Part shown: in pieces, positions 2,351-26,951 of the stretch
Numbering within the stretch: the stretch's first letter is position 1
Layout: each line of letters begins with the position of its first letter
Virus genome (UHGV): UHGV-0059448
DNA length: 29,315 nucleotides
Strand: one strand, 5' to 3'
From: a virus
The notes under the pieces: generated by a model
Databases searched by the model: none
Seen by the model: only the letters and a program-made list of their open reading frames with translations
Told to the model about the DNA's origin: nothing
Translations under genes and position numbers: made by a program

Positions 2351-5300
2351 AACCTGTGAATGAACCAGATCCGTGTGATACTATGATAGTAGGCGAAGAA
2401 ATTGACGCACCACTGTTATTTTGAGCGGACACTTTAATACGCACTGTTACGTTTGGACCTGTTACAACCGCAGAATGCATGATAAGTCTCTCCATGTCTT
2501 GCACGGATGAACCACTCTCATTGCCGTTAATATTGATTAGTCCTGCACCATTACCTTTAACGTTTGCTATAACACAGACGTGTCTTGCGTGCCCAGAACT
2601 GGATGAATCCGTATAAGTTATTACCTTTTCTAAAAGACCGTCACTAGACCGACTAACGTTAGTTCCGGTGTGCATATTTGCAATGTCCCCGATAAAACTT
2701 TGGGCTTCCACAGTCCCTTTGAATTTACCGCTTGTTGCTTGGATCTCACCAGTAAAGCTACCGCCACTAGCATATACTACACCTCTGACGGTCACATTGT
2801 TGAATTCAGCATCTCCAGCTTTATTCAACTTCCAACCAGCAGAACCAGCTGCATAGTTGTTGGACTGGATATAGTTGCCGATTTTGGCGTTCTCAATGGT
2901 GCCGTCCTGGATGAAGCTGGCCCGGATGAATGTCTGCCCGTTCTGGATCACGAACGGCAAAGCTACGCTATTTCCGGCTGCCGTGGTGACGGCGAAGCGG
3001 TCAGCCAGAAAAATTACCTGTGATTGCATGCCGCCAGGTGTATTTTGTACCCCTATGCCCATACCTGCAGCGTAATACTGGCCGTTAGCGGCAACGCCAA
3101 CTTTGATGTTGTACATCGCGTTTAGGTTGCCGTTTACATCTGCCACCGCCTGCGCCGTCTGGTTGATGGCTGCAGTCTGCCCGTTCACTGTCACCGTCAG
3201 AGAGTTAATCTTCGTGGCGGATGCCTGGGTGAAATCAGCCAGTGTCTCCGTCAGGTCGGTCGCGTTCGAAACATTCCCACCCGCAGACGCATCAAGCGTA
3301 ACCAATGCCCGGGCAACCGCCTGGCTGGTATCGGCAATGGTGGTGTCTATCCGGTCAATTTTTGCGACATTGCCGTTATTGGTGGCAGTCTGGGAACGGC
3401 GGGAAGTCACCTGCGCCAGGCTGTTCTGGATCACGGCAATTGATGAGTTTTTGACACCGCCGGTCATGCCGTCCATCGACACAGAAATCTCGTCGATCTT
3501 CACTTCGGCCTGAGCCAGCCCGTCAGCGTTCTCCAGGATGTCTTTCGCCTGCTGCTCGAGTTCGTCGGCATGGTTTTTAATTTCGTCAGCCATGCCAGCA
3601 ATTTTTTCATTGCTGTCCACCGCGTTCTCGATCAGGTCTTTGAACGTATCGGAGTCTTTAATTTCCTCCAGAATCACATCTGTGATATCGGAAACATCGA
3701 TGCTGGCCTGTCCTCGCACCCATTCTGTGTACCCTGATTCGTTGCCGCTGCGGTCCACCAGCTGCGCGCGGTACCAGAAAATCTGCCCAGCCTTAAGGCC
3801 CATCTGCTGATATTTGCGCTGCGGGTAAGGCACATCGGCCAGCAGCATGGCATCGTCTTCAGTACCGGTCAGGCTGTACTGAATTTCCGTCTTCAGCGTG
3901 TCGTCGGTATTCGCCTGGAATCCCCAGTTCAGCTCGATACCGAACACCACGTTTTCAGAGGCGATAAAGCCAACCGGCTTCGGTGGATTGCCCACTTTAC
4001 CCGTCAGCGTTTTCTCTTCTGAATAGCCCCATCCGGATGAAATTTCTGCGGCATTGATTGCGCGCACCCGCACCAGGTAGCGCCCGGCATAAATCCCCGG
4101 GACGTCGAATGACGTGGTGGAGGTGCGCGGCACGTTAACCCAGTTCCCGTCATTGCGACGCCACTGTGCCTCATACGCGATAGCATTTTTCGCCTGGTCC
4201 CAGCTGACGCGCATGGTCTCAACGCTGATATTCTGCTGAACGACAGAAAACGAACTGATCGCGATATTAGCTGGCGGGGACTGATTACCGGGCGGAATTA
4301 CACTTATTGGCCGCTGGTCGATAATGGCACCGGTATCGATACGCGCATATTTATCCGGATCGTGCAAAGCGCCAGCAATCGAATACGTTCCGTCATTATT
4401 ATCCGTAACGCTGATAACGCGATATTGCTGCGCGTAAAGCTCTTCAGACTCGACAATCCACACCGATTCCACTGCAGGTGTTTCGCTGTATGCCGTTGTC
4501 ACAGTGACGGCCCGCCCGTTTACGCTCTGTATCGTCCTGCTCTGCGATGCGCCGGACGGAAGGTTAACCATCAGACGGCTTCCGGGAGCGGCTGGCGAAT
4601 CACGATCAAGCGTGATAACGCGACCGTTAACCGCGCTGATGCGCCCTCCCATCACTTTTCCGGAAAGCAGCTCATCGGCAACCGCGATGATATAACCAGG
4701 CTGTGGGATCTTACCGTCAAGACCAACATCGAACGACACGATGCGATCCTTGTTATTGGTCAGGATACCCCAACGTCCTTTGCGGTTTGCCTCTGACTGC
4801 CGGGTACAACCAATGGCTGTCATTTCGAGCTGATTTGTGCCAAAGCGAGCAACGAGATCCTGCTCAAATACAGGCTCCATCGCATCCGCGTAGGCATTAC
4901 CCGGATCGGACCAGGAAACCAGTGCCGTGGTATAGCGGGTTTTGGTGGTGCTGCCCGAATAGGTAAAGCGCCCATTAACCACGTTTGCACGCGTGTAGCT
5001 GTAATCCACATCGCGGGGCATATCCGCCAGCGCAACGATTTGATCGCCACCCCAGTACGTCATGCCCCGGAATATCGCCGCAAAATCACGTAACACGGTA
5101 TAGGCGTCATTCCTCTCCTGCACGTACACGTTACAGGTATAGCGAGGCTCAGTGCCGCTACCGCCTTTACCATCAGGAACCGGCTGATCGCAATATTGCG
5201 CGACCTGATAAAGCGTCCATTTATCAATATTGGCCGCCGTCAGGCGATTGCCCAGCCCAAAGCGGTCGCTCACCACCAGATCGTAAAAAATCCAGGCTGG

Positions 5301-22562: not shown

Positions 22563-23465
22563 TTAAGACTGGATATTCCAAATCATTGCGTTACCGTTAT
22601 GATTTTCAATGATTTTTGCCAGTGGTGCTCCACCAAAAGAATGCATGTAGCTGTGATGTATAGTCAAAACCAAATCTTGAAGTACTTGATCACTTTCAAG
22701 TTCGGTAACATTCAACCCAATTTTCTGCGCCTTATCAAAATGAATATGACGCGAGTGGGTATAGGTTGTGTGATGGTTGTTTAACTCTGAACAAACATGT
22801 GTTGCTTTTGATTCTGCCTCAGGATCATTATCAAACATGCCTGTCATAAGCCAATGCTTAACAATCTCATTTGCCCATTTGATTGCTTTCTCACACTCGC
22901 CGATGATCGTCGGGTTTAGCTTTTGAAGAATGAACTGCCACATCTGAACAGCTGCGGGATTTTGAAAAATTTCCGTCTGCGCACGATTCCATTCTTCAAT
23001 GATGGCATGGGTGGAGAAACCGTTGAACTGAGGATCAATTGGGCCAATGTTGGACTGTTTACCCATGATGATTTCATTGGCACAACATGCAAGCATAGTT
23101 CCGCAGGACATTGAAATCATAGGAACAATTGCTCTGATGTTAGTTCCAAACTTCGACCTTAAGTAATGCCCGATTGATTCCAAAGCGGCAATATCACCAC
23201 CTGGAGTATGAAGTATCAAATCCAACCCTTTTGATACATCTAAACCATTGATGGCTGTCATCAACCCGTTCTTATCATCATCAGTCATCTGAGTAAGATG
23301 GCGTACTTCTGCACCACCATGCTGTAACCACCCTGAGTAATATGTGATTACATTTCTTCCAGTATGATTCGAAAGTTGAGATAAGTATTTACGGCGAACC
23401 TCATCCATAGGACTTTTATGGGCGAGAGCCGTTATCTCGCCCAGTACGTCGCTCCAATTAGGCAT
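22563..23465 (-). CDS. ClpP-fold serine peptidase-like protein (S49 / serine dehydrogenase proteinase-like), accessory
   Basis: 300-aa ORF, ATG at 23465; motifs LILHTPGG and ISMSCGTMLA followed by IGPIDPQ resemble the oxyanion/nucleophile regions of ClpP/S49-family peptidases; lower GC than structural genes; second such protease in the window besides C. Family assignment is from motif recognition only. Confidence 0.65.
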   Translation of the reverse strand: MPNWSDVLGEITALAHKSPMDEVRRKYLSQLSNHTGRNVITYYSGWLQHGGAEVRHLTQMTDDDKNGLMTAINGLDVSKGLDLILHTPGGDIAALESIGHYLRSKFGTNIRAIVPMISMSCGTMLACCANEIIMGKQSNIGPIDPQFNGFSTHAIIEEWNRAQTEIFQNPAAVQMWQFILQKLNPTIIGECEKAIKWANEIVKHWLMTGMFDNDPEAESKATHVCSELNNHHTTYTHSRHIHFDKAQKIGLNVTELESDQVLQDLVLTIHHSYMHSFGGAPLAKIIENHNGNAMIWNIQS

Positions 23466-24039: not shown

Positions 24040-24576
24040 TCATTTTCGTAACTTCTCAATCTCTCGTATACCCGCCAGGTTATTGTTGCCCTTCTCAATA
24101 ACAGCCAGCAAAGGTTCAATCCAGAGGACGGCCTGGCAATACGTCATTGAGCTGGCGGCAGCGGTACTATCATCGGTTGCGTTAGTGTTCCCGGTATCGG
24201 GGTGCATTGCGCTGGCACGTAAACGGTACGCGTATTTGAGCAGCCCACCAGCGACATCAGCAGGAACAGGCAGATCACAGGTCTTTTCACGTCGGAGAAT
24301 CTCCCGGTATTCGATGACAGTTTTCTCAGTACCGGCATCGATCAGCGAGTTAAGGCGGTTGGCGTTCTCTGCTATCTGGTTAAACCGATTGAAGTTGAAA
24401 GCCTGTGTAGTTATCACCGTCGCCTGCAGCGCGTTATCATTACGTAATACCCGATTCTCACTCTGTTCTGTTTCAAGAGCTGAGCGGCTACGAACCAGTA
24501 ATACGCTAAGCACTGCAATAATGATTACGACAGCCACCAGCAGAACCGCAACAATCGTAATTTTTCTGGGTTTCAT
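24040..24576 (-). CDS. Rz: spanin, inner membrane subunit (Rz-like)
   Basis: 178-aa ORF with N-terminal transmembrane helix (ITIVAVLLVAVVIIIAVLSVLLV) and a charged helical periplasmic part; start overlaps the endolysin stop; contains an embedded lipoprotein ORF in another frame. Confidence 0.8.
   Translation of the reverse strand: MKPRKITIVAVLLVAVVIIIAVLSVLLVRSRSALETEQSENRVLRNDNALQATVITTQAFNFNRFNQIAENANRLNSLIDAGTEKTVIEYREILRREKTCDLPVPADVAGGLLKYAYRLRASAMHPDTGNTNATDDSTAAASSMTYCQAVLWIEPLLAVIEKGNNNLAGIREIEKLRK
24144..24290 (-). CDS. Rz1: spanin, outer membrane lipoprotein subunit (Rz1-like), embedded in Rz
   Basis: Frame embedded within Rz; probable GTG start at 24290 (GGGAG about 10 nt upstream) giving MKRPVICLFLLMSLVGC with lipobox LVGC; Pro-rich mature part (...PIPGTLTQPMIVPLPPAQ). 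The ORF track lists an ATG at 24338 as an alternative start. Confidence 0.7.
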   Translation of the reverse strand: MKRPVICLFLLMSLVGCSNTRTVYVPAQCTPIPGTLTQPMIVPLPPAQ

Positions 24577-25148
24577 CAGAATACCCCCGGAACTGATACC
24601 GGAATGCCAGGGTTAAGCGGCCCGAGTCCATCCCCCAGAACCTGAGGTTTCTCTGCCCACAGGCAAACTTCACGCTCAATCTCACGCCTCGTGATTAAAC
24701 CCTTCCACTGTTTGTCACCAGCATAGATCCAGCGCCGCAGTTGTTCGCATGCGCCTTTCGAATCACCCTGGTTGATTTTTCGTAACAGTGTGGAGGTTTT
24801 GAAGTTTCCCGCGCCTACGTTATACGCAAATGAGTACAGCGCCCCTCTCATCGTTTCGGGGATCGGAGCATTGATATATGGGTTAATCTGTCGGGCGACA
24901 ATATTCAGGTCTTTATCCAGCAGCGCCTGGCACTCTGCTTTGGTGTAGGTCTTGCCGAGGATAATATCTTTACCAGTATGGCCCCAGCATACAGTCCACA
25001 CTCCAACAACATCCCGATAAGGCTGATAGCGTACACCTTCAAGGCCATCATTACCCGTTGGGCCAGTAATCAACGCCGCAGCGATAGCAATAGCGCCAGC
25101 GGGTATCGCTGCAATAACGCTATTCTTCAGCTTTGGTGGCATAGCCAT
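24576..25148 (-). CDS. R: SAR endolysin (T4-type lysozyme, phage 21 R-like)
   Basis: 190-aa ORF; N-terminal signal-anchor-release segment ([18 protein letters not shown]) followed by GNDGLEGV...[14 protein letters not shown] catalytic region resembling phage 21 R as recalled. Confidence 0.9.
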
Positions 25149-25398
25149 TGCGCCGATCCTCCCGTTCTTTCCAGCGGAAATACCAGTTCACTGCACAGGT
25201 AATAACAGTGCATGCGATACCGACAATAATTGCCCAGTCGCTCAGGCTTAACCCTGCAATTCTGTCGGCCAACATCCAGGACACCTCTTTTGCTGTTTTA
25301 GCTGTTTCGGCATATGCCTTCGCTGATACACCGCAGCCGGTCAGCGTGGTTCCTGTTCCATATGAAAGTCTGCTGTAAATGGTGCTCATTCTGGTCAT
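25120..25398 (-). CDS. S: holin (phage 21 S-like pinholin) with dual-start motif
   Basis: 92-aa ORF beginning MTRM (ATGs at 25398 and 25389) with GGAGGTGAGG SD; two predicted TMDs and C-terminal KEREDRR resembling S21; 3' end overlaps the endolysin start. Confidence 0.85.
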
Positions 25399-25605
25399 AG
25401 CCTCACCTCCGATTTTTCGGATGGCGCTGTGTGTGTGTTTGAAAAGGGTCAGGCTTCACGGGCTGGATTTATCAACAAAGCACGTAGCGGATGATTCCCG
25501 TGAGCCTGAAATTGATGAATATGTCTGAAATAACTAGACCATTAGTAAAACAACTCGATAAATGTGGTTAAATGAGACTACGTTCTCACAACTTAATTAG
25601 TACCA

Positions 25606-25776
25606 ATGATTATCAAGCCCTGCCCCTACTGCGGAAAGTTAATTAACCCAGAATCACTTGTGTGTAGCCACTGCCGGATAGTGAATCCTTTTGTGAAGGC
25701 CAGCAGAAGAGAAAAAGCGAAGAATGTATTAGTAATCGCTCTCGTTGCTGCTTTTTTAATTTGGATGATTCTCTGA
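25606..25776 (+). CDS. small zinc-ribbon membrane protein (56 aa), putative
   Basis: Plus-strand ORF MIIKPCPYCGKLINPESLVCSHCRIVNPF... with two CxxC pairs and a C-terminal hydrophobic helix (VLVIALVAAFLIWMIL); below the ORF-track size cutoff; weak SD; AT-rich insert between tR'-like terminator and holin. Confidence 0.4.
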   Translation: MIIKPCPYCGKLINPESLVCSHCRIVNPFVKASRREKAKNVLVIALVAAFLIWMIL

Positions 25777-25807
25777 GTTGCCAGTTTTCAATGAAGATAA
25801 TGCGGGC

Positions 25808-25835
25808 AAAAAAAAGCCTGCTCGGACGAACAGGC
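25808..25835 (-). terminator. rho-independent terminator, candidate tR' of the late leader transcript
   Basis: Minus-strand RNA GCCUGUUC-GUCC-GAGCAGGC followed by UUUUUUUU; about 140 nt downstream of the candidate late promoter. Confidence 0.6.
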
Positions 25836-25978
25836 ATGAAAAATAACAATACCGTCAAGGAGGTGGCGCCGGGTGCCTCCCGGTGGAACAGCCCCAGCCG
25901 ACTAGTTCCGCGCAAACAAACCTGGACAAAAAAGTTTGACTGGACGCCCCGCCGCATAGGGGGATTCACCACACGAAT

Positions 25979-26008
25979 AGATTAACAACATGTTAATTTT
26001 CTGGTCAA
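25979..26008 (-). promoter_or_regulatory. candidate late promoter pR'
   Basis: Minus-strand TTGACC (26008..26003), 18-bp spacer, TAATCT (25984..25979); context ATATCTTATTGAC resembles the lambda pR' region as I recall it. Weak -10, so assignment is tentative. Confidence 0.3.
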
Positions 26009-26144
26009 TAAGATATAAGCAAATGATGACATGCAGTTTTCTTATTGCTGAGTAACTTCAATCTGGTTCAGGGCTCTGCGCGGAAGGGCTTTGACGTGTC
26101 GTGCAGCACGTCTCTACCCAAGAGCCCTGACCGGATCGCAGGCA

Positions 26145-26172
26145 TAAAAAAGCCCCGGCGGATTGCCGAGGC
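26145..26172 (-). terminator. rho-independent terminator about 90 nt after the stop of the putative Q gene
   Basis: Minus-strand RNA GCCUCGGC-AAUCC-GCCGGGGC followed by UUUUUUAU. Confidence 0.55.
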
Positions 26173-26261
26173 TAATTTTACAAACTGGTATATGACTATC
26201 ATCTTCATGCCGCCACTTAAAGTTAAGGCAGCATATCAAAGTAGACTCAAATATGACGTAT

Positions 26262-26951
26262 TTAATTGACTTTTGCAAGACCCTGCTGCGAAAAAGTCGC
26301 TTTTTGTTGTGATCGTGTTCTCACAGCACAGAGAAGAGAGTCGCTATCAAGCCGCTTAAAAATGGCGCACATAGCCCGCCAGTAATCAGCGTAGTTATGG
26401 CACCAGTTATCAGGCTTAACGCCACACAGGGCTGCAAGGTCCTGGTGCTGATATACATACTTACCCGCCAGCTCTGCTTTCACGTCCTGTGCCGCCAGCC
26501 ATATCAGTTTCTTCAGCCGCTCCATCGTCTTGCCGGCCACTTTCTTAGCGCCGAGTTGATCACGGAATTCTTCCCATGCCCACTGTGTTATCGCTACTTG
26601 ATACTCAAAGCGGATATTGTCGCTGTAGTTCCACAGCAACCAGGATTTCTGGTGGTCTTCCAGCGACAGGAGGGCGCGGCGCCAGCTGGCTGTCGAGTAT
26701 TCAACGGGCAGAACGAGAGCGATTGAGGAACCCTTAGCGCGGGACTGGCTGCCGCTCATCGGCGGTCCATCCGGGTTAACCATTTTTTGCTTCACCTCGC
26801 TATACACCTTCTTCCGGCCACGGCTGCGCGCCGTAGCGGTAAATTGCGCGTTCTCTGCAAAAGCTACCAGTTGCCCTTTCGTCGCACCACTCAGATCGGC
26901 GGTGGCCACTATCAGCTGCTGGCGAACAAATTCCAAGTATTGAGCTGTCAT
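26262..26951 (-). CDS. putative late-gene antiterminator (Q-like by position; family not verified)
   Basis: 229-aa ORF, ATG at 26951 overlapping the stop of the preceding small ORF (ATGA); last gene before the late promoter/terminator region and lysis genes; sequence does not resemble lambda Q as recalled. Confidence 0.5.
   Translation of the reverse strand: MTAQYLEFVRQQLIVATADLSGATKGQLVAFAENAQFTATARSRGRKKVYSEVKQKMVNPDGPPMSGSQSRAKGSSIALVLPVEYSTASWRRALLSLEDHQKSWLLWNYSDNIRFEYQVAITQWAWEEFRDQLGAKKVAGKTMERLKKLIWLAAQDVKAELAGKYVYQHQDLAALCGVKPDNWCHNYADYWRAMCAIFKRLDSDSLLCAVRTRSQQKATFSQQGLAKVN

Follow-up and report, generated by a model that had tools for sequence, protein, structure and literature searches.

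A conserved antisense gene for a predicted zinc-ribbon membrane protein in the Q-to-holin interval of a lambdoid prophage

We analyzed UHGV virus genome UHGV-0059448, a DNA stretch of 29,315 nucleotides (hereafter, the window) which is a lambdoid prophage whose late genes are encoded by the minus strand, and focused on a 56-codon open reading frame (ORF) located on the plus strand between the Q antiterminator gene and the holin gene. Judged by comparison with its homologs, this ORF is a real, conserved protein-coding gene under purifying selection. Its product is predicted to be a small zinc-ribbon protein with a C-terminal membrane anchor. We interpret the gene as self-contained cargo (a 'moron') carried on the opposite strand in the lambdoid Q-to-holin slot, an account that we consider reasonably probable as a whole, including the function suggested for it below. 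The existence of the gene is not new, as the protein has already been catalogued and named by NCBI.

Evidence for a protein-coding gene

The ORF listing places the coding sequence (56 codons and a TGA stop codon) at 25606–25776, plus strand, with the ATG at 25606 and the TGA at 25774–25776. The 56-residue product, predicted to be a small zinc-ribbon, tail-anchored protein, is MIIKPCPYCGKLINPESLVCSHCRIVNPFVKASRREKAKNVLVIALVAAFLIWMIL. All features listed for this ORF in the initial annotation, i.e., its antisense orientation, its CPYC and CSHC pairs and its hydrophobic C-terminus, were found as described. ORF length alone is not beyond chance, since ATG-initiated ORFs of at least 56 codons occurred in 322 of 2,000 shuffles of the gap sequence (16%); the reality of the gene rests on comparative evidence.

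Protein and pattern searches detected the ORF in assemblies of Escherichia coli, Salmonella enterica and Citrobacter as well as in 25 IMG/VR viral contigs. Approximately 31 loci contained 11 distinct nucleotide alleles, every one of which was intact. Three subfamilies could be distinguished: the window type with 56 residues, a second subfamily with 59–61 residues (~55% identity) and a third with 63 residues (64% identity), and the length differences between them were in frame. Within subfamilies, the ratio of nonsynonymous to synonymous substitution rates (dN/dS, Nei-Gojobori method) was 0.15–0.26 for most pairs and rose to 0.62 where few differences were present. The window sequence and the locus of Salmonella Veneziana (L007) differed by 14 synonymous and 11 nonsynonymous changes on 36.8 and 131.2 sites, respectively (binomial p = 2e-4). 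Between subfamilies, dS was saturated and dN was 0.32. Variable sites were distributed over codon positions 1, 2 and 3 as 11, 12 and 28 (p = 0.005), and the frame of the ORF was the only one of the six that was open across all 11 alleles.

Conservation was also evident at the protein level. Four Cys residues (C6, C9, C20 and C23) were invariant across every homolog, and N27, P28, F29, V30, K31, A32, E36 and N40 were invariant in the close family, with a [DN]PF motif retained in distant relatives. The C-terminal tails of different subfamilies consisted of unrelated sequences of equal hydrophobicity. In L007, homology to the window was mostly limited to the ORF and the flanks had diverged. A comparison among related prophages, as proposed in the initial annotation, therefore revealed a gene that is intact at all loci and under purifying selection in this frame only; a lack of conservation in related insertions, which would have spoken against the ORF, was looked for and not seen. 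The same annotation had pointed to a weak ribosome binding site and cautioned that the ORF could be spurious. The former observation stands, as no Shine-Dalgarno sequence was seen, whereas the latter is contradicted by the comparative evidence, in view of which a weak ribosome binding site does not make the ORF spurious.

We also considered a 109-residue minus-strand ORF (25643–25972) as a possible gene overlapping the one described here. It was rejected as spurious: its frame contained stop codons in most other alleles, and its upstream half fell within a match to the small RNA (sRNA) family STnc100, which is discussed below.

Domain organization of the predicted protein

The N-terminal part of the protein contains zinc-ribbon knuckles of the form CPYC-x10-CSHC (residues 6–23; 25621–25674, plus strand), in which CPYC corresponds to residues 6–9 and CSHC to residues 20–23. 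With its four invariant Cys residues, the protein may bind one zinc ion. The knuckles are followed by the NPFVKA motif and a basic juxtamembrane stretch (residues 24–40; 25675–25725, plus strand), which were recognized from the alignment and a charge count; net charge is +4 over residues 28–40, and the segment KASRREKAKN directly precedes the hydrophobic tail. The remainder (residues 41–56; 25726–25773, plus strand) is a C-terminal hydrophobic helix and predicted membrane anchor according to Kyte-Doolittle hydropathy and AlphaFold2. These residues are uniformly hydrophobic (mean Kyte-Doolittle value of 3.1 over 15 residues) and the protein ends there. The hydrophobic segment has 16 residues in the window subfamily and 19–20 residues in the other subfamilies. 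All subfamilies showed the pattern of tail-anchored proteins, that is, an N-terminal domain, positive charges before the tail and one hydrophobic segment that forms the very C-terminus. If the positive-inside rule holds, the protein would be tail-anchored, with the zinc ribbon in the cytoplasm and the C-terminus just reaching the periplasmic face.

An AlphaFold2 model based on the family alignment had a mean predicted local distance difference test (pLDDT) score of 82 and consisted of beta knuckles in residues 1–26 followed by a long helix in residues 28–55 (pLDDT ~91). A fold search of PDB and BFVD with this model returned generic zinc-ribbon knuckles alone and no significant match. The best structural matches were knuckles of the NZF/RanBP2 type (root-mean-square deviation of ~1.1 Å over 27 residues, not significant), and a profile search of PDB sequences found no relative with a solved structure. 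With the Zn_ribbon_3 model (PF13248, threshold 27 bits), the window protein scored 23.5 bits, whereas two close homologs (P0154, 27.8; P0007, 30.4) and a distant one (P0013, 28.1) exceeded the threshold.

Relationship to DUF2116 and other small Cys-containing proteins

The exact protein is named 'DUF2116 family Zn-ribbon domain-containing protein' by NCBI and 'predicted nucleic acid-binding Zn ribbon protein' by JGI. When compared with the DUF2116 model (PF09889), the window protein aligned to positions 6–56 of 59 and scored 24.6 bits (E = 2.5e-5), which is below the threshold of 26.8 bits. Scores across the family ranged from 16.5 to 25.9 bits and no member reached 26.8. On these scores, the window protein is a borderline DUF2116 relative and not a certified member, despite its NCBI name. 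DUF2116 proteins, described as 'probable treble clef' and, in COG4068, as 'predicted nucleic acid-binding Zn-ribbon protein', resemble the ORF product in having ~60 residues, a CxxC...CxxC arrangement, a basic stretch and a hydrophobic C-terminus; unlike them, the ORF family has its own invariant NPFVKA / [DN]PF motif. The DUF2116 label explains nothing, since DUF2116 itself has no known function. The searchable literature contained nothing on the function of this protein, and DUF2116 was mentioned in a single paper, for the protein DanI alone; likewise, nothing relevant was found in the literature on small zinc-ribbon membrane proteins of prophages and on antisense cargo between Q and holin genes.

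Annotation of the ORF is inconsistent among assemblies, the identical protein being named by NCBI in other assemblies than those in which it is missed. The gene thereby illustrates an annotation problem, in that a sequence under selection is skipped by a standard pipeline and elsewhere carries a DUF2116 label although it scores below the threshold.

The YnfU family of the Qin prophage (NCBIfam NF038384) is similar to the ORF product in that it comprises 56-residue prophage proteins with two CxxC pairs. In contrast to the latter, YnfU has no hydrophobic tail; the similarity between the two is at chance level (E = 0.083), and they are separate genes. The loci of the second subfamily (L034–L040) resemble the Qin prophage. 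They contain a gene for a YnfU-like 56-residue zinc-binding protein (3542–3712 in L034), which shares the orientation of the ORF and lies 360 nt downstream of it, together with cspA-like genes which match the cspA thermoregulator and the sRNA isrI (with a further site at 4120–4499 in L034).

Occurrence and genomic context

The full cassette was detected in 10 of 5,426 complete E. coli genomes (~0.2%), and this rarity marks the ORF as optional cargo. None of 50,697 phage records contained the ORF. The exact protein occurred on 583 contigs of a large protein collection. Searches of a 5.8-billion-protein database, together with a profile search of 1.8 billion representatives, resolved the close family into 8 clusters and retrieved distant relatives that carried no informative name. 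The exact protein falls into a 90%-identity cluster of 39 members whose representative, through a clustering artifact, is an unrelated 980-residue solute-binding-like protein.

The initial annotation had described the interval as a slot in which lambdoid phages carry cargo, and this description holds. In the ECONIH5 prophage (L045), Q, tRNA-Asn and the holin leader with its hairpin were the same as in the KL53 prophage (L001), but the ORF, STnc100 and an HNH gene were missing. The gene is thus present or absent among related phages between conserved flanking backbone sequences, as expected of a moron. The same slot contained other antisense ORFs in HK225 and Louie and tRNA arrays in Mulock, and in the DLP12 prophage of E. 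coli K-12 it is occupied by nmpC in antisense orientation, with borD antisense after Rz. The block that distinguishes KL53 from ECONIH5 (L001, 3854–4390) comprises the HNH endonuclease gene, STnc100 and the ORF, and the HNH gene might have helped to mobilize it.

Known cargo of the lysis region offers partial parallels. The nmpC/lc porin gene between Q and the holin gene and bor after Rz (in DLP12 and lambda) are likewise optional genes which oppose the late operon in the same slot or beside the lysis genes, and such genes, which are expressed in lysogens from their own promoters, are an established precedent for cargo of this kind. They have no sequence relationship to the ORF, and they encode an outer-membrane porin and lipoprotein, in contrast to the predicted cytoplasm-facing inner-membrane protein described here. 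Sense-strand cargo between Q and S, such as stx and tRNAs of Stx phages, the tRNA arrays of Mulock and tRNA-Asn of KL53 and ECONIH5, occupies the same position downstream of Q and a terminator. This cargo has late orientation and needs Q-dependent read-through, whereas the ORF is antisense and has a promoter-like element of its own.

The ORF was antisense to the lysis genes at all loci. The distance from its ATG to the holin start on the opposite strand was 203–270 nt in 21 of the 31 loci and 654–782 nt in 8 more. Four holin families and at least five types of Q were represented among the neighbors, and the same protein allele was found with three holin families.

Homologs that share 51–53% identity and the architecture of the ORF product are present on 8 Enterobacter IncFII plasmids, where they stand alone within accessory regions and have no lysis genes nearby. 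The profile search of 1.8 billion representatives yielded about a dozen more short proteins which combined a zinc ribbon, [DN]PF, a basic stretch and a C-terminal hydrophobic helix. Wherever the context of these distant relatives could be read, it was mobile or accessory, with BrnT/BrnA and a type IV coupling protein as direct neighbors, or with a SocA-like gene or IS66 in the vicinity. No conserved partner gene was present at any locus examined, whether in prophages, plasmids or other elements. Since the plasmid relatives stand alone and no partner is conserved, the protein does not appear to be tied to lysis and may work by itself.

Predicted expression signals

A putative σ70 promoter, identified by conservation, lies upstream of the ORF (25545–25573, plus strand). 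It consists of a weak -35-like element, GTAAAA (25545–25550), a TG dinucleotide (25565–25566) and the -10 element TTAAAT (25568–25573), with a spacing of 17 nt between the -35-like and -10 elements and an expected transcription start near 25580. The motif reads TGTGGTTAAAT in the window (25563–25573) and TGTGGTAAAAT in the second subfamily, with the consensus TGTGGT(T/A)AAAT, and in every subfamily 32 nt separate the end of the -10 element from the ATG. In L034, a promoter scan called TTAAAA-17-TAAAAT preceded by TG. An operator, LexA-like or palindromic, within the conserved segment 25513–25547 was considered and discarded; TCTGA-N4-TCAGA is present at some loci and absent from the window.

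The promoter is followed by a short A/U-rich leader that lacks a Shine-Dalgarno sequence (25574–25605, plus strand; identified from sequence), of which 25 nt would belong to the transcript. The region around the start codon had a predicted folding energy of -4.3 kcal/mol and was less structured than shuffled sequences (z = +1.4). Such an A/U-rich, unstructured start region is compatible with initiation independent of a Shine-Dalgarno sequence. The antisense orientation and the promoter motif point to expression in the lysogen that would be independent of late transcription.

Proposed role as a self-contained cargo gene

We propose that the gene acts in the lysogen as follows. A transcript would start from the extended -10 promoter (TG-n-TTAAAT, 25565–25573), ~25 nt before the ATG, and its translation would begin without a Shine-Dalgarno sequence, from a leader in which the A/U-rich composition and the open start region are observed features. 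The predicted 56-residue product would comprise a four-Cys zinc ribbon in its 26 N-terminal residues, the NPFVKA motif, the basic stretch and the hydrophobic helix. In accordance with the positive-inside rule, the helix would hold the protein in the inner membrane such that the zinc ribbon is on the cytoplasmic side. We regard this part of the scheme, from the promoter to the anchored protein, as very likely when taken together.

The target is a less certain matter. Because no partner gene travels with the ORF and its relatives occur alone on plasmids and mobile elements, the protein probably acts by itself on a component of the host or of an invader rather than on phage lysis proteins. The function that we regard as the best guess, albeit a doubtful one, is that of a superinfection-exclusion or defense factor which would bind protein or nucleic acid at the inner-membrane face and benefit the lysogen. 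Known superinfection-exclusion proteins, such as HK97 gp15 and P22 SieA and SieB, are small inner-membrane proteins made in the lysogen from stand-alone cargo genes. They differ from the ORF product in that they have no homology to it and contain no zinc ribbon. Upon induction, Q-modified late transcription would meet the gene head-on and generate full-length antisense RNA, which may shut the gene off.

Several observations weigh against this account. In each of the 10 complete RefSeq E. coli genomes with the ORF (e.g., NZ_CP030919.1, 1778057–1778344), its position was left blank by PGAP, the Prokaryotic Genome Annotation Pipeline. In the window, the promoter scan made no call, position 2 of the -10 element being T, and no Shine-Dalgarno sequence precedes the ATG at 25606. 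A terminator scan of 25000–26600 detected no plus-strand terminator-like site that could serve as the gene's own terminator. The anchor of 16 residues is short for a membrane span. A PHROGs scan of the protein matched families of unknown function only, and a PADLOC scan gave a chance-level zinc-finger match only and nothing tying the protein to exclusion or defense. Finally, the fixed position beside the holin leader could reflect a role related to lysis.

The protein might also be the founding member of an unrecognized class of single-gene factors of mobile elements, i.e., tail-anchored zinc-ribbon proteins of ~60 residues with the signature CPxCG...CxHC-x3-[DN]PF, distributed over prophages (there in antisense orientation between Q and the holin gene throughout), plasmids and conjugative elements. 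Such factors would protect their carrier, for instance by keeping out the DNA of invading phages or plasmids or through abortive infection triggered at the inner-membrane face, and head-on late transcription would switch them off when a prophage is induced. We consider this extension rather unlikely. If functional, the gene would be a very small, single-gene addition to the set of prophage genes expressed in lysogens and a clean bacterial example of a tail-anchored zinc ribbon. As it stands, it is a rare, uncharacterized cargo gene of prophages with nothing tying it to virulence, lysis or defense, and is of mild interest because it is consistently placed in antisense orientation between Q and the holin gene and has spread to plasmids.

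Alternative explanations and neighboring RNA elements

One alternative is that the protein is a membrane-tethered antagonist which captures a transcription factor, a sigma factor or a nuclease and thereby reprograms host gene expression in the lysogen, in the manner of anti-sigma factors, membrane inhibitors of LytTR regulators or DanI. The layout of a cytoplasmic zinc-containing head and an anchor resembles zinc-binding anti-sigma factors, and the closest, albeit non-significant, structural matches (NZF/RanBP2 knuckles) are protein-binding modules. In uropathogenic E. coli, the LytTR regulator DanR is antagonized by DanI, a 69-residue protein labeled DUF2116 (bioRxiv 10.1101/2025.06.10.658900); like the ORF product, DanI is a small four-Cys zinc-finger protein encoded on a mobile island. 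However, DanI is soluble and has no membrane anchor, and its adjacent partner gene danR is absent at the ORF loci, none of which has a regulator gene next to the ORF. As a relative, DanI (the gene from UTI89 was used) was rejected: hhalign gave a probability of 0.8%, the hydrophobic tail is missing, and its own DUF2116 match is partial and below the threshold, with 19.2 bits and restricted to the knuckles. In addition, the anti-sigma and YacG matches in an NCBIfam scan were at chance level (E = 0.07). We judge a tethered antagonist of this kind to be unlikely.

A second alternative would link the protein to lysis timing, as an antiholin-like or otherwise holin-modulating factor that is anchored in the membrane and binds holins or the leader of their mRNA, for instance to guard the lysogen against a leaky holin. 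Alignments, RNA folding and the position table revealed a long-loop hairpin in the 5' leader of the holin gene (25450–25508, minus strand), 52–110 nt upstream of the holin ATG, with the stems CAGGCT/AGCCTG and CACGGG/CCCGTG and a loop of ~34 nt. Two of its base pairs showed compensatory changes (in L037 and Mulock), and it had no match in Rfam. Like lambda tR', it has a long-loop organization; unlike tR', it has no clean U tract. In most loci this hairpin is found at a distance of 151 nt from the ATG of the ORF. In L038–L040, the holin leader and the hairpin are duplicated and located at -601 and -151 from the ORF.

Proximity to the holin start and to this hairpin, the inner-membrane location predicted for the protein as for holins, and the 'nucleic acid-binding Zn ribbon' label of JGI would all fit a lysis-timing regulator. 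Yet the hairpin occurs beside four holin families and also in phages that lack the ORF (HK225, mEp237, Louie, Gifsy-2 and ~29 Klebsiella phages), and is an element of the phage backbone. Being on the opposite strand, the ORF cannot share a transcript with the lysis cassette, and late transcription would run antisense to it. The occurrence of the same allele beside unrelated holin families makes a specific contact with the holin unlikely, and the 51–53% identical homologs stand alone on plasmids without lysis genes. Moreover, the holin gene (25120–25398, minus strand; PF16080, 44.3 bits; PF04971, 31.6 bits), the divergent neighbor of the ORF, already has a dual-start MTRM antiholin motif. A role in lysis timing is thus quite improbable.

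As a third alternative, the protein could belong to a type I toxin-antitoxin or abortive infection system, as a small toxin whose hydrophobic tail damages the membrane once the protein accumulates. Antisense RNA, either from STnc100 read-through or from the late transcript, would hold it in check. A sequence of the STnc100 family of prophage sRNAs (25805–26004, minus strand; Rfam RF02076, 82.6 bits versus a threshold of 47) is convergent with the ORF and ends 29 nt past the ORF stop codon, without overlap in the window. The 3' end of this sRNA is formed by an intrinsic terminator (stem and T8; 25816–25835, minus strand; found by terminator scan), which is 40 nt past the ORF stop and has no U tract on the plus strand. 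STnc100 was found downstream of several unrelated Q types, was placed on the other side of the ORF in L007 (at 4467–4673) and L033, and was absent beside the ORF in loci of the second subfamily. Both the unrelated Q types and the opposite-side placement mark STnc100 as an independent module separate from the ORF, and not a Q-specific pR'-tR' transcript. The idea that STnc100 controls the ORF by antisense pairing was considered as well and rejected, as the arrangement of the two is not conserved. A 2026 preprint relates STnc100 to PasD sRNAs (bioRxiv 10.64898/2026.05.13.724894).

The small size and very hydrophobic C-terminus of the protein are what a toxin would require, its poor ribosome binding site recalls many type I toxins, a convergent sRNA gene has its terminator 40 nt beyond the ORF stop, and distant relatives adjoin BrnT/BrnA and SocA toxin-antitoxin genes. 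On the other hand, no overlap with an antisense sRNA is conserved, given the positions of STnc100 described above, and the plasmid copies have no such neighbor in the gene table used, although RNA genes are omitted from that table. The start region is open rather than sequestered, and a conserved 26-residue zinc ribbon together with NPFVKA would be atypical for known type I toxins; neither is known as a feature of Hok, TisB, Ldr, Ibs or Zor. A membrane toxin is therefore hardly probable. Lastly, a spurious ORF whose conservation stems from constraint on the late-transcript leader or on a DNA signal would agree with the shuffle frequency of 16%, the missing Shine-Dalgarno sequence, the silence of PGAP in 10 complete genomes and a location within a late leader that is transcribed and includes conserved elements of RNA, but is made extremely improbable by the third-position bias, dN/dS of ~0.2 with dS saturated between subfamilies, the sole open frame in 11 alleles, the replacement of the tail by other hydrophobic sequence, the in-frame length change, the diverged flanks of L007 and the plasmid homologs outside any late leader.

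Organization of the Q-to-holin interval and other features

Besides the holin gene, the region includes the Q antiterminator gene (26262–26951; Pfam PF06323, 268 bits), the lysozyme gene (24576–25148) and an Rz-like gene (24040–24576). The interval between Q and the holin gene is 863 bp long and contains a terminator behind Q, the STnc100 match and a 417-bp stretch that holds the ORF. The terminator behind Q is a second intrinsic terminator (26151–26173, minus strand), with a 9-bp stem containing 7 GC pairs and a T6 tract, 89–111 nt beyond the stop codon of Q. To reach the holin gene, late transcription must therefore get through this terminator, the STnc100 terminator at 25816–25835 and the leader hairpin.

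The gap between the STnc100 terminator and the holin gene measured 417 bp with a GC content of 41.5%, compared with 52.3% for the whole window, in agreement with the AT-rich gap of roughly 400 bp given in the initial annotation. Its description as longer than in lambda did not hold up, since the tR' hairpin of lambda ends ~405 nt ahead of the S start codon. Nor is the label 'tR'-like' established for the terminator at this position, because it belongs to the STnc100 sRNA and another terminator directly follows Q.

Right before the start codon of the holin gene, a small hairpin (CCAUCCGA...UCGGAGGUG; 25399–25428, minus strand) pairs the Shine-Dalgarno sequence, GGAGGUG. By analogy with the sdi structure of lambda, this hairpin and the MTRM dual start look like ordinary translational control of holin and antiholin. 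A (TG)n run in the holin leader (25429–25439) varies in length among otherwise near-identical loci: it reads TGTGTGTGTGTTTG in the window and TGTGTGTG--ATG in L004 and L005.

Beyond the lysis cassette and ahead of the terminase region, the minus strand contains a 300-residue ORF (22563–23465) which is probably another cargo gene. Its counterpart in the KL53 prophage is annotated as 'SDH family Clp fold serine proteinase'.

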